From a virus (Duplodnaviria > Heunggongvirae > Uroviricota > Caudoviricetes), in the IMG/VR virus record IMGVR_UViG_2740892282_000009: DNA of 22,170 bases; one strand, 5' to 3'. Positions 4,893 to 21,066 of the stretch are shown here, piece by piece. How positions within the stretch are numbered: the stretch's first letter is position 1; every line of letters begins with the position of its first letter. The notes under the pieces are model-generated. The model ran no database searches, had not been told where the DNA came from, and saw only the letters and a program-made list of their open reading frames with translations. The position numbers were made by a program, and so were the translations under genes.

Positions 4893-4900
4893 GGCTTTCT
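4878..4900. terminator. Hairpin between convergent genes (candidate bidirectional terminator)
   Basis: AGAAAGCCC-atgta-GGGCTTTCT: perfect 9-bp stem with 5-nt loop, overlapping the stop codons of the plus-strand moron (4890-4892) and the minus-strand gene (4900-4902). Confidence 0.5.
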
Positions 4901-6003
4901 TAAGAATTACGTCTCTGGCTGCTTCTTACTGCCTGTGTCACACTGTTGGCGTGCTTCTTCAACATTTCATTGAATTTCTTATCATCACCTGCAACGTCAC
5001 CCTGAATGATTAAGGGAGCGTTAACGGTGATGTCACCAGCAGTACTACCGCCTTTGTCCTGAGTATCGAGGAATTTAGTAAGTTTCTTGTTGGCTTCTGG
5101 CTGTACGACACGCTCACCGGCTTTCAGTACGAATGATTTATTATCATAACTAGATGGTAATTCATCTACGCCGCCGTGGAACTGCCCCGCATCAGCACCT
5201 TTTGCAGTACTGATAATGCTCAATCCAAGAGAGGCTACCTGTGCATAGTTCGCAAGGTTTTGAGGCCACGGCGTAGCAAGTGCCTGTGCAAGTGCGGATT
5301 GAATGCTTAGTACTGTCTGAGCTATCGTGATCCCACGTGAAACCATGAATGCCGCTTCGGCTGCACCAGACGATTCCCCAAATGCGGCCACCATCGCCCC
5401 ACTAAGGTTTTGTGCAGTATCTGAGAAGATTGTGAGTTGTTGCTGTGCATTCTGGTTACTGATATCAATGGCCTGAGCATTGTACTTTGCTGTTATACCA
5501 GTAGTGTTAGCACCTACGCCGTAATCCCCCTGATAGACAGGAAGAGGTGCAGCCATTGTCATTACACGGGCAACTACATCAGCAGGTGTAAATGAATAGG
5601 ATTTAGTAACTACCTGATCCTTATCCCCGGATAATTGAGTACCCGTAACGTAACCATTGACGATGGCATAAGTGATCTGACTTTCTTCTAAATCTAATTG
5701 ATACTGAATAATGACCTGAAATACAGTTTGTGATTCAGCTATTTCATCTAAGAATTGGTGCGTAGGATCATCAGGTAAGTATGCAACCACAATATCAAAT
5801 GGTTCTACTGATTTATCGGATAGTAGTACTGTCTTGTACTCATTATCATAGGTTTCAAAATTATTTGTTTCTGACTGGATGGTTAGAGCAGGAAATTCAG
5901 TTACATTATTAATAGTAACATTGCCTATGCCCTGTGGTGAACGGTTTCCAGTGTCCGTATTATATTGTAAAGTTAATCCCTTACCTGAAAAAATGTCGGC
6001 CAT
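4900..6003 (-). CDS. Tail protein with tape-measure-like Ala/Gly/Gln-rich central region (367 aa)
   Basis: Lies between the small head-tail genes and the tail-tip genes. Central low-complexity helical segment (AQQQLTIFSDTAQNLSGAMVAAFGESSGAAEAAF...) as seen in tape-measure or ejection proteins. The N-terminal 150 aa could be a tube-like domain. Confidence 0.35.
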   Translation of the reverse strand: MADIFSGKGLTLQYNTDTGNRSPQGIGNVTINNVTEFPALTIQSETNNFETYDNEYKTVLLSDKSVEPFDIVVAYLPDDPTHQFLDEIAESQTVFQVIIQYQLDLEESQITYAIVNGYVTGTQLSGDKDQVVTKSYSFTPADVVARVMTMAAPLPVYQGDYGVGANTTGITAKYNAQAIDISNQNAQQQLTIFSDTAQNLSGAMVAAFGESSGAAEAAFMVSRGITIAQTVLSIQSALAQALATPWPQNLANYAQVASLGLSIISTAKGADAGQFHGGVDELPSSYDNKSFVLKAGERVVQPEANKKLTKFLDTQDKGGSTAGDITVNAPLIIQGDVAGDDKKFNEMLKKHANSVTQAVRSSQRRNS

Positions 6004-6743: not shown

Positions 6744-10565
<3,822 letters not shown>

Positions 10566-12956: not shown

Positions 12957-13520
12957 ATGTCAGACCGCAACAATGATTTTTCTTTGCTGGTAAAGTTACT
13001 GAATAGCTTCCTAAAGAATGAAGATATAAAGAGGCGTCTGTATTCCTTCGTCAGTAATGAAACTAATGATTGGGAAAAATGGCTACAAATTGAATTTGAG
13101 CACTTCCTTAACAAAAAAAGAAAATATGAAGTTAAACGTGAAGTTACAGCTTTTCTTGACCCTAATAATTTCCCTGCAAGCAAGCTCTCAAAAATCGATA
13201 TAATAATGAGAGAAAAAGATACCCTTTTTGAAGACTATATCTTTATTGAGCTGAAATGTACTAAGCGTTCATCTGCCTTAAAAAGAGGATTGCAAGCAGA
13301 CCATTTGAAACTCAACTCTATACAAGAATGTAAGTATCCGATGCGAAATTCTTTCTGTGTTGGTTTTCATTTATATTGCTCATCATCTGTAGTTGAAGAA
13401 ATGGACAAGTATGTAACCGATACCCTTAAAGGATCTCATGCAGTATTCAAATTATGCGAATGTCCGACAAACCGTCATTGCGATTGTGCGTTAAATGAAA
13501 TAGGTGTTGTACTTTGCTAA
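12957..13520 (+). CDS. Small PD-(D/E)xK-like nuclease-fold protein with Cys-rich C-terminus (187 aa)
   Basis: Motif ...EKWLQIEFEH ... KIDIIMRE ... (16 aa) ... YIFIELKCTKR fits a D ... E-x-K nuclease core. C-terminus CECPTNRHCDC. Divergent from the TerS gene (44-bp gap). AT-rich, low GTAC count. Confidence 0.45.
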   Translation: MSDRNNDFSLLVKLLNSFLKNEDIKRRLYSFVSNETNDWEKWLQIEFEHFLNKKRKYEVKREVTAFLDPNNFPASKLSKIDIIMREKDTLFEDYIFIELKCTKRSSALKRGLQADHLKLNSIQECKYPMRNSFCVGFHLYCSSSVVEEMDKYVTDTLKGSHAVFKLCECPTNRHCDCALNEIGVVLC

Positions 13521-13699
13521 GTGCGGTGCGGGAAGCTATCTAAACTTCACACATAACTTAAAGAATCCGGTGCCGAAAACTCGCGTTCTAAGCTGGGCTG
13601 CCGGAGTACCTTAATTAGTAATTTAACTTAATTAGCTTGCTTAAAAATACTTACATTCTATTTTACATTAGCATTATTACAATGTTATATTAATAGCAC

Positions 13700-18989: not shown

Positions 18990-19869
18990 CTATTTAACAC
19001 TACCATCATTCATAACCCATTTTTTCTTGCCCGACTGAAAATCCTCGACTATAGCTTTAATTTGTTCTGAAAAATCTATAATGGATGTACTAGCTATAGG
19101 TTCTCGATAAACGTAATCACAATGGTATTCTGTAATTTTAAATCGCACCTTACTATCTAAACCCTCGAGCCAACCATCATTGAATTTTTCAAAATATTCA
19201 CCAGGGCCATATTTCAGTTCTTTACTCAAACTGAAAATCCTGTTTGGTATATCATGTATAGTATATTTCACATTGTTTTGAACATCATTGATGAAGACCT
19301 CATTGTTCATCTTTCCTTTAAATATATTTTGGAAATCATCTTCTTTATAGTCGCTCTGAGAGTTAAACCATGCACCATCAACACGCACATTAAAATTTTT
19401 AATTTCTGGTAATGTCCGTGCAATTATATTCATATGAATTGTTTTTAACAATGGCTCACCATCTTCAGTAATCCAATCGGACTCTTGCTGACCACGTATA
19501 ACAAGCAACTGTATATTGTGCTGTTCAGCTTTTATCTTTGCACCACTCTGATATCCTGTCCGTGTAGCATAAATTAGCTTAAGACCTGGGATGTCTGAAG
19601 TTTTACCAATATATGCATCAATTTTTTTCAATAGATACTGGTGTTGAATAATCTTTACACTCTATCACTGATCTATAGATATTACCCCCTAACTCAAATT
19701 CCCAATAGATATCAAATTCCCTTTCAATACCTGAACGATCTTTAATCTTTTTATTCTTCTCAATGTTAATATTATTGAGGCTTGGTATATTCTCAGCTGC
19801 AATAAGTGACCGCTGGATATCCCGTACTAGTTCTTCATATTCCTTGCCTGAATTGTACATATGAATCAA
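18990..19869 (-). pseudogene. Mrr-like (PD-(D/E)xK, restriction-endonuclease-type) nuclease gene split by a frameshift in a 7-nt homopolymer
   Basis: The upstream ORF (19618-19869) carries EFDIYWEF...VIECKDY; the downstream ORF (18990-19631) continues with KLIYATRTGYQSGA, matching the Mrr catalytic-domain pattern as I recall it. The two frames overlap in the T7 run at 19622-19628 (A7 on the coding strand); the downstream frame has only a TTG start. Removing one nucleotide gives a continuous reading frame of about 295 aa. Confidence 0.55.
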
Positions 19870-20541
19870 TATCTCTAAACAGAATGTATTGCTAATAGTA
19901 CTCCAAATGCCTGTAATTGTTCAAGTATCAGATAAGCAACCTTACAGCTTAGATAGAAAGCTAAGACTGCTTCTGTTGTTCAAATTAATATATCTACTTG
20001 CAAGGAACGATTATGTAAATCGTATGCAACAATCTGGGTTCGGTCGATCCACGGTTCGCGGTTGGGACTGCGTGGGCAACTCACTAATAATTTGATCAAT
20101 TACTTTGCCAGTACTTAGAAAGTAATTATGTGAGGCTTTAACAGCCGAACGCCCCGACAAGGGAGTTTACGACCACGTAGTTACTCACGAATACTTACCA
20201 AATCACTTTGAGTTCTTCTTTTGTCAGTACTGTTACTTGTCTGAGCGAAAGCGAGTAAATCCCTTAGTTCTTTTCGAGTACTAGCGAGAAAAAACGCAAG
20301 GTTCGGTTTAATTTGTTTTTCAGTGACTATACGACCGCAGGGAGTGTAGGCACTCAAAGACCGATTTGGACGTAGTACAAGAGGTCTTAATAATTTCTAA
20401 TTATGGTGTCGAAATTCTGGGCAACCCATATACAGTGTGTTTTAACTCATATTGATACTATATCTAGTGCAAGCAACACTAATCAACCCCATAAAAACCA
20501 CATTTAACCTTAATTACGACATTTGAACCGTTATTAAAACA

Positions 20542-21066
20542 CTACTTAGAATGTCTTAATTCGGGATAAATTGTAGCTATAACCTTTAGTAGGTCTGCCT
20601 TAGTACAGCCACCATCTAAAGCCATACGTAGTTGATATGCTTCTTCACCAGTTAAGTACTGTGCTCCCTCTGGTGTATCACTTCTTACCGGCTTACCACT
20701 ACTTAGAATCGCATTCAGGCCTTCACATATAGCAATCGTGACCATCTTATAATCTCGTACTGAGGAATCGCCGTACTCATTGAGTGTAAAGGCATCAAAG
20801 TACTCGATATTGTTCTTTATCGCTTCATCTGTGATGTATCGAGTCGATGTAACCAGAAGTAGCATATTCTTGTTTGAGAAAGTCTTACGTTTCTTGTTCT
20901 TTTCAAAGTAACTTTTAACAGAGTTTGATATTACTCTACGTGCTTCATCTGTAAGTTGATTGAGATGGCGTACTCCCCTTAGATGATCTTGTAATTCTGC
21001 ATTATCGTGTTTTTTTGGTTTTCGTCCACGTTTCTTTATTTCATGCGGCTCTTTCTTTTTTGTCAT
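20542..21066 (-). CDS. Hypothetical protein with basic N-terminus (174 aa)
   Basis: Lys/Arg-rich N-terminus (MTKKKEPHEIKKRGRKPKK) suggests nucleic-acid binding. Directly downstream of the HNH homing-endonuclease-like gene; backbone composition (GTAC-rich). Confidence 0.4.
   Translation of the reverse strand: MTKKKEPHEIKKRGRKPKKHDNAELQDHLRGVRHLNQLTDEARRVISNSVKSYFEKNKKRKTFSNKNMLLLVTSTRYITDEAIKNNIEYFDAFTLNEYGDSSVRDYKMVTIAICEGLNAILSSGKPVRSDTPEGAQYLTGEEAYQLRMALDGGCTKADLLKVIATIYPELRHSK

Follow-up and report, generated by a model that had tools for sequence, protein, structure and literature searches.

A strongly conserved non-coding element beside the gene of a small basic protein in a family of enterobacterial prophages and mini-islands

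Introduction

What does a stretch of about 670 bp without a convincing gene do in the genome of a tailed phage? The question is raised by positions 19870-20541 of IMG/VR record IMGVR_UViG_2740892282_000009 (Caudoviricetes), the 22,170 nucleotides (nt) of which are called the window throughout. The stretch is bounded on one side by a restriction-endonuclease-like gene, which starts at 19869 (- strand), and on the other by the stop codon of the gene for a protein of 174 amino acids (aa), P1 (20542-21066, - strand). An earlier note, prepared from these letters alone, offered three options for it: a non-coding RNA (ncRNA), a gene remnant or an attachment-site (att) region. As judged by comparison with homologous loci, the region is a non-coding element, strongly conserved and hitherto undescribed, that belongs to a family of enterobacterial prophages and mini-islands not yet cultured. 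Its conservation, the synteny with P1, the agreement between its sites and the type of P1, the covariation of its hairpins, their strand bias and the lack of coding potential are directly supported. Our leading, still tentative, interpretation is that the element is a P1-dependent replication origin or control region that carries a conserved module acting as a folded single strand.

Results

Parts of positions ~20055-20565 were found again in about 40 loci, which come from metagenomes and from Escherichia, Kluyvera, Mangrovibacter and Serratia. They were collected with patterns scanned against IMG/VR, against GTDB genomes and against metagenomes, and then with nhmmer, and they hold 23 distinct versions of a core of ~190 nt. 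The pattern used on the genome collection was too loose (40 of its 44 matches were due to chance), and the real matches came only from Kluyvera, Mangrovibacter and Serratia. A profile built from 13 cores matched positions 20207-20407 of the window at E = 1.6e-41 and matched about 40 loci. When 5,426 complete Escherichia coli genomes were searched by BLAST, a further 32 of them showed a match of 100-210 bp in unannotated DNA.

The cores are 80-90% identical between loci whose P1 proteins share just 16-21% identity, which suggests that the partner of the core is something conserved across lineages, in the host or the phage backbone, rather than P1. Short open reading frames (ORFs) over the core lie in differing frames in the window and in loci L003 and L010, and the copies differ by single-base insertions and deletions that are not multiples of 3; the stretch is therefore considered non-coding. 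The absence of a shared frame, the single-base changes and the high identity together argue for a selected non-coding element and against a gene remnant.

The longest ORFs in 19870-20541 have 68 aa (19889-20095, + strand, TTG start), 58 aa and 49 aa, which bears out the claim that the stretch has no convincing ORF. Most of the 68-aa ORF falls in a spacer (19870-20029) that is not conserved beyond the window's own lineage, and nhmmer alignments to other loci begin at window position 20054 or later (query position at least 25). This weak ORF is what speaks for the remains of a gene, of an att site or of a tRNA, or for chance, a reading that we consider extremely improbable. A gene fragment or pseudogene was rejected because no reading frame is kept among the homologues, the insertions and deletions are out of frame and 80-90% identity is maintained in non-coding DNA across genera; no protein-level signal was detected either. 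The att option, with a tRNA or tmRNA 3' end, failed as well, since ARAGORN found no tRNA or tmRNA gene in the window, in line with the earlier failure to fold a tRNA, and the prophage border is ~4.5 kb away in the closest genome copy. An integron-like attC array was also discarded, because there is one element per locus and no copy between cargo genes.

The element was absent from 50,697 phage records searched by BLAST with the region and with the family consensus, and P1 had no tblastn match in the same records. It carries no annotation in the RefSeq copies that were looked at (the prophage and the ffs and thiM islands described below), and a full-text literature search with its signature sequences returned no paper. 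Hochhauser et al. (2023) do not mention thiM, ybaA or yeaG.

Taken by itself, the single sequence holds nothing beyond chance, and it is conservation that gives the region its significance. The G+C (GC) fraction is 0.40-0.455 across 19900-20300 and 0.30-0.34 on both flanks, so that the locally raised GC reported earlier is real. The inverted repeat quoted by the earlier note exists, with coordinates one base off; its 9-bp arms occupy 20098-20106 and 20119-20127, and short inverted repeats taken alone are at chance level. Only pairs of 10-20 nt appeared in a repeat listing of the stretch. A cmscan search against the 4227 families of Rfam 15, a check that had been suggested before, gave no match at the gathering score and only noise at E <= 10, the best match there reaching 18.9 bits against a threshold of 140. 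A promoter and terminator scan of the stretch found no terminator-like site, and its 10 promoter-like sites are near the expectation from shuffles (5.3 +/- 2.6). The statement that neither a retron reverse transcriptase (RT) gene nor a clustered regularly interspaced short palindromic repeat (CRISPR) is nearby holds for the window: it has no CRISPR repeat and no RT gene among the flanking ORFs, and the related loci examined have an RT-free gene order too. A retron msr-msd was accordingly dropped as a candidate. The description from the single sequence was correct. It missed that the element is a landmark of the whole family and that its right third is made up of several sites peculiar to the neighbouring 174-aa protein.

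This right third (~20388-20565) would be the DNA target of P1. It opens with an AT-rich box (20388-20404) that reads TAATAATTTCTAATTAT in the window lineage and TTAATATTAATATAAG, containing the 10-bp palindrome TTAATATTAA, in most other lineages. Directly after the box stands site S1 (GGTGTCGAAATTCTGG, 20405-20420, + strand), the first copy of a P1-type-specific sequence. An AT-rich spacer of ~87 bp (20421-20507), in which the window carries CCCCATAAAAACC where other lineages show A-tracts resembling GCAYAAAA(A)C, leads to site S2 (CCTTAATTACGACATT, 20508-20523, - strand), an inverted copy that agrees with S1 at 11 of 16 bases. Site S3 (AATGTCTTAATTCGGG, 20550-20565, + strand) is a direct copy, again with 11 of 16 bases in common, and lies within the last codons of P1. 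S1 with an inverted S2 occurs in 15 other loci, spaced 72-132 nt from S1, and the geometry of S1, spacer, inverted S2 and S3 beside the P1 stop codon is constant.

P1 is a basic, all-helical protein (AlphaFold model with a predicted local distance difference test score, pLDDT, of 79.7) whose gene converges on the element, with synteny in 18 loci. Across loci it has 153-193 aa and always adjoins the element in this orientation. No match to it was found in Pfam, in PHROGs with a function, in NCBIfam, in PADLOC or in PDB. The S sequence is common within a P1 type and different between types: GTTACGGTTAT accompanies proteins of 155 aa, GGGTACTAATTCGGG those of 169-193 aa, GGGCTAATGG those of 161 aa, TTGCCGTATT those of 153 aa and GTGCCCGTTTTT those of 187 aa, and the window type, GGTGTCGAAATT, goes with the 174-aa protein. 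P1 is the presumed binder of S1-S3. Repeated type-specific sites, an AT box and an AT-rich spacer at the P1 stop codon agree with the layout of an iteron origin, in which repeated sites for the initiator adjoin an AT-rich unwinding region close to the initiator gene. In such an origin, the three sites of 12-16 bp, direct, inverted and direct around ~90 bp of A/T-rich DNA located 3' of the P1 gene and into its end, would be the iterons, and the AT-rich DNA would be the region of unwinding.

The same sites could also serve a transcription regulator. P1 would then be a repressor or a late activator, S1-S3 would be its operators and the AT box a -10 element, and the core would be one of two things: the leader of a - strand transcript that enters the cargo and the late genes, comparable to Q/qut-6S or to antitermination of the put type, or the body or upstream region of a + strand RNA directed against the P1-recombinase operon, similar to oop. 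Several details agree with this explanation. The P1 gene immediately precedes its sites, in the manner of lambda Q at PR'; the AT box, against which S1 lies, offers TATATT (- strand) and TATAAG or TAATAT (+ strand); a triad with an inverted member is typical of operators; and terS and the late genes lie downstream on the - strand. However, no -35 sequence is conserved on either strand, and a scan complemented by inspection detected no sigma-70 promoter conserved at a fixed position in the spacer. The first cargo gene points either way (+ in 7 loci and - in 7), + strand cargo genes stand between the element and terS, the hairpins would contain C.A mismatches if they formed on the - strand, and there are no terminators to antiterminate. 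We regard a regulatory role of this kind as rather improbable.

In the origin that we favour, the left two-thirds of the element (~20055-20388) would be an auxiliary module, shared by the whole family and independent of the P1 type. Its features are all read on the + strand. The conserved core (20203-20388) carries TCACTTTGA, GTCAGTACTG (20223-20232) and GAGCGAAAGCGAG (20243-20255), the last a GNRA-type loop with tandem G.A on its flanks. It also has a hairpin, TTTTCGAG..GCGAGAAAAAACGC (~20271-20297), hairpin E (5' arm 20322-20332, loop 20333-20343, 3' arm 20344-20354) and a terminal hairpin, AAGACC..GGTCTT, in which 20357-20362 pair with 20383-20388. Module A (20030-20128) consists of a GC-rich patch, GGTTCG..GGGACTGCGTGGGCAACTCAC, followed by TTTGATCAATTACTTTGCCAGTACT, and includes the 9-bp inverted repeat. 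Modules B and C (20129-20202) hold the hairpin GGCU-UUAAC-AGCC (20134-20146), CCCCGACAAGG (20152-20162), a variable hairpin closed by GAGU..ACUC (20163-20186) and ACTCACGAATAC. They exist in 11 distinct versions in the other loci, with an invariant B stem, one variable loop base and an optional hairpin that is either GGCC-NNN-GGCC or GGUAC-GCA-GUACC.

Modules A and C are diverged paralogues of parts of the core (repeats D1 and D2). In module A, 20091-20115 match the start of the core at 20207-20231 (internal direct repeat D2), and L009 shows a clean duplication. The left part can thus be described as a short array of diverged units of 110-160 nt, with one to three modules per locus in addition to the ~190-nt core. 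Module A is common to the window, L005, L007 and L010 and is missing from many copies, including those of all mini-islands. The RNA of a type III toxin-antitoxin system, marked by short tandem repeats that precede a co-oriented endoribonuclease toxin gene, was rejected on the repeat listing and the gene order, since the modules are long (110-160 nt) and diverged and P1 is convergent rather than co-oriented. The window and L006 are identical only from GTCAGTACTG rightwards, a break that indicates, from the alignment, that related phages recombine inside the element, the 5' modules travelling with the cargo.

Several observations suggest that this left part is read as a folded + strand. RNAalifold, applied to 13 and to 23 cores, predicted the D hairpin and hairpin E, and double changes were present at 10 of the pairs. 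In a test of 18 named pairs, 92.5% of the cells could pair, compared with 85.7% in shuffles (none of 500 reached the observed value), and controls in which the pairing was slid gave 30-62%. Double changes were present at 9 of the 18 pairs versus 2.6 expected, a count that reflects few independent events in 23 related sequences, and several of those in one helix are an alignment shift in the window lineage. The ratio of G.U to A.C pairs on the + strand was 52 to 1, and G.U pairs are legal on this strand only. One position of hairpin E is A.G in 18 sequences, A-U in 4 and G-C in 1, and another is A-U in 13, G-U in 8 and U-A in 1. In the GAGCG-NNN-GCGAG hairpin the loop varies (GAAA, GAGA, GAUA, GAUC, GUUC) over a fixed stem. 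A folded + strand, as RNA or as single-stranded DNA, is likely but not proven by these comparisons.

These properties would also suit an autonomous + strand gene for a structured ncRNA of ~200-400 nt. Its product would work in trans, be it as a regulator, a sponge, or an anti-defence or defence RNA, and the P1 sites would merely be adjacent. Of the three options in the earlier note, the ncRNA is the one that survives, strengthened by conservation well in excess of that of the neighbouring regions and by the compensatory changes in the hairpins. The G.U pattern confined to the + strand, the recurring GNRA-type loops and tandem G.A (GAGCGAAAGCGAG, CGAG..CGAG and the loop of hairpin E), the variable loop over a fixed stem, the modular construction with optional stems, typical of RNAs, and a conservation that does not depend on the P1 type all point in this direction. 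On the other hand, no Rfam family matches even at E <= 10, no promoter or intrinsic terminator is conserved, folding z-scores are ordinary and the RNAalifold covariation term is small, only -1.4 kcal/mol. In addition, the 3' end of such an RNA would enter the convergent P1 gene, and phages break and rejoin inside the element, where the 5' modules move with the cargo. We hold an independent RNA gene of this kind to be somewhat unlikely, and less probable than a module that serves the origin.

The element occupies a fixed place in its prophages. With + to the right, the gene order is constant: terS is followed by a conserved cos-like motif and by 2.3-7 kb of variable cargo, and beyond the cargo come the element, P1, the gene of an HNH_3/AP2-type endonuclease and that of a small protein (p59). 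A recombinase of the serine type or an integrase of the tyrosine type, with the attachment site, closes the series. The small protein reads by eye as ribbon-helix-helix-like and had no family match in the scans. The region is 99.9% identical to that of E. coli AREA_C483 (NZ_CP123310), where it lies within a prophage damaged by insertion sequences (IS). The serine recombinase of this prophage abuts yeaG, and the border is beyond the recombinase, ~4.5 kb to the right of the stretch. The structural module of the window is compact and siphovirus-type, with a Nu1-like small terminase subunit (TerS), a gpA-type large terminase subunit (TerL), a portal, a protease-capsid fusion, and distal-tail and J-like proteins. 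Among sequenced phages, TerL finds its best match at 35% identity, and at the DNA level only 297 bp of the window match any phage record. The whole prophage (window, L001 and L087) measures ~32 kb and has head, tail and lysis genes, with no recognisable replication initiator, helicase, primase, repressor (cI/cro) or antirepressor gene. An origin and its initiator must therefore hide among the uncharacterised parts.

A second conserved non-coding motif, GTGCGGTGCGGG .. GCCGAAAACTCGC .. GGAGTACCTT, is located upstream of terS (13520-13617). It was identified in 12 phage-type loci, including the window and the near-identical L001, and the mini-islands lack it. Its distance from terS is ~130 bp in most phage-type loci and ~690 bp in the window, L006, L015 and L009, because an extra ORF (187 aa in the window) is inserted there. 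This motif is probably the cos site or the late control region. Its existence bears on the proposal that the element itself is a DNA-packaging site (cos or pac), with P1 as specificity factor and the mini-islands as satellites that carry the packaging signal of a helper. The motif nearer terS is a better cos candidate than the element, which is separated from terS by 2.3-7 kb of cargo and so departs from the lambda-type position of cos directly upstream of terS. The GC-rich module A is missing from many copies, among them those of all mini-islands, and covariation of hairpins is not expected for a cos site. A packaging site is, in our view, quite improbable.

The mini-islands have 8-9 kb and no structural genes, and they carry the element and P1 together with an integrase, a small serine recombinase and defence-like cargo. 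In the ffs islands of E. coli (L002 and L003) the order is DUF2188, small recombinase, cargo, element, P1 and integrase; matches of the ffs type occur in 32 genomes, and the island order is that of two of them, which were inspected. The thiM island (L086 13023-22261) has a similar content, and a thiamine pyrophosphate (TPP) riboswitch is duplicated as its attachment site. With the prophage family as relatives, these islands may represent minimal integrative elements or satellites of a kind not described before.

The variable cargo, found in either orientation, includes an mREase_II homologue, DUF3800, an HNH protein and a weakly Mrr-like gene. The last of these, the restriction-endonuclease-like gene beside the element in the window, is split into 18990-19631 and 19618-19869 by one extra T in a T-run near 19622. 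Its Mrr_cat match is weak (E = 0.0016, under the Pfam cut-off), and the same gene is intact, with 289 aa, in NZ_CP123310; the extra T is either a frameshift of this copy or a homopolymer sequencing error. The cargo of AREA_C483 (L001 13122-16602) contains an IS3 remnant interrupted by a group II intron ltrA, ~4 kb from its copy of the element, and the terminase of this prophage is broken by IS elements; the window is without these insertions. Among the tail genes, a 367-aa protein at 4900-6003 combines major-tail and tape-measure matches, a combination that suggests a very short tail.

The palindrome AGTACT was considered as an element-specific protein-binding site and dropped because it is ~10 times over-represented across the whole prophage. 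It has 76 copies in 22 kb versus 6.6 +/- 2.75 expected (shuffle maximum 15), which occupy all three codon phases and non-coding DNA. A ~10-fold excess is also observed across related prophages (L087 1-19116, L007, L009, L016 and L019) and ends at the border of the L087 prophage. In L002, an ffs island, a segment of 120 bp (7599-7716) contains five copies. A methyltransferase gene is present at the left end of the prophage. The excess hints at a phage-wide binding or modification motif.

Discussion

We tentatively propose that the element is an origin, or a control region, that depends on P1 and combines two parts. P1 would bind the S sites and the AT-rich DNA between them would unwind. The left module would act as a folded single strand, since its hairpins are kept by compensatory changes and their G.U pairs fit the + strand only. 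It could be an RNA transcribed towards the origin, functioning as primer or activator; alternatively, the displaced + DNA strand could be a priming signal. Conserved host machinery would read the module in either case. The mini-islands, which keep both P1 and the element, fit a minimal maintenance module.

A number of results weigh against this proposal. P1 has no relationship to known Rep, O or DnaA-like initiator families in Pfam, NCBIfam or PDB, no consistent DnaA boxes were seen on inspection, and inverted sites around a spacer suit operators as well as iterons. The element was absent from all plasmids searched by BLAST and so does not correspond to a known autonomous replicon. Neither a promoter nor a terminator is conserved at a fixed place across the element, and the folding energy of the single sequence is ordinary compared with shuffles (z = -0.25 for the + strand and -0.79 for the - strand). 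As to the fold, the covariation comes from few independent events among 23 related sequences, and much of the G.U excess is due to a U-run opposite an AGAGA repeat. A third copy of AGAGACT changes in parallel in L085, and a triple protein-binding site or alternative hairpins could explain such parallel changes.

A broader suggestion, which we find on balance unlikely, is that a structured RNA of ~200-400 nt belonging to a new class (or else a DNA strand that folds) forms together with P1 the minimal maintenance core of both the prophages and the 8-9 kb islands, possibly as an RNA-primed or RNA-activated origin for replication or mobilisation without a known replication gene. The ffs and thiM islands and the prophages share only the element, P1 and a recombinase, so that knowing the role of the element and P1 would explain how these islands are maintained or moved. 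The element is, besides, the fixed boundary of a hotspot of defence genes in a prophage lineage that has no sequenced phage relative, and would offer a simple sequence handle with which such cargo hotspots could be located. If the folded modules are RNA, they would represent a new family of RNAs whose genetic context, in E. coli, is tractable, and if the region is an origin, P1 would be a new type of initiator.

The closest parallels to the right third are the origins of Staphylococcus aureus pathogenicity islands (SaPIs) and other phage-inducible chromosomal islands (PICIs), where iterons surround AT-rich DNA just 3' of rep, and the lambda origin (ori) with its O protein. As in these systems, type-specific sites are arranged around an AT-rich spacer, here ~90 bp, at the 3' end of the gene of the presumed binder, the site sequence tracks the type of the protein, and the carriers are integrative, phage-related elements. 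However, P1 has only 153-193 aa, no helicase or primase domain and no detectable Rep or O homology, and the element has just three sites in mixed orientation. It also has a large conserved structured module beside the sites, independent of their type, and we know of nothing like it in the SaPI/PICI and lambda origins. Since P1 belongs to no initiator family, the element is not assignable to the iteron origins.

The left part resembles ColE1 RNA II and the G-site or single-strand initiation (ssi) signals in that a strand-specific fold with multiple hairpins, located a few hundred bases from the proposed origin, would be read by host enzymes. Primosome-assembly (ssi) signals and G-sites occur in plasmids and in phages with single-stranded DNA. 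The element differs from all of these in having no sequence similarity to them, no Rfam match and no copy in the plasmids searched. With lambda 6S/qut, HK022 put and lambda oop it shares a conserved structured segment that adjoins the gene of a small regulator where two gene modules of a temperate phage meet, but it is much larger (~200-400 nt with repeated modules), has no fixed promoter or terminator, and its fold fits the strand opposite to the late genes. Like GOLLD, ROOL, HEARO/omega RNA and retron msr-msd, it is non-coding, several hundred nt long, rich in hairpins, mobile and located beside defence cargo; unlike them, it matches none of the 4227 Rfam families and adjoins no IscB, TnpB or RT gene.

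At the level of gene organization, the defence hotspots of P2-like phages and P4-like satellites (Rousset et al., 2022, PMC9122126) are similar in that variable anti-phage cargo is inserted at a fixed place between conserved landmarks of prophages and small islands. The present family belongs to another phage lineage (TerL identity of 35% in the best match to any sequenced phage), and its landmark is a conserved structured non-coding element, not genes. By analogy with the systems considered here, the element would work most like an iteron origin joined to a structured module, or like a phage leader or primer RNA.
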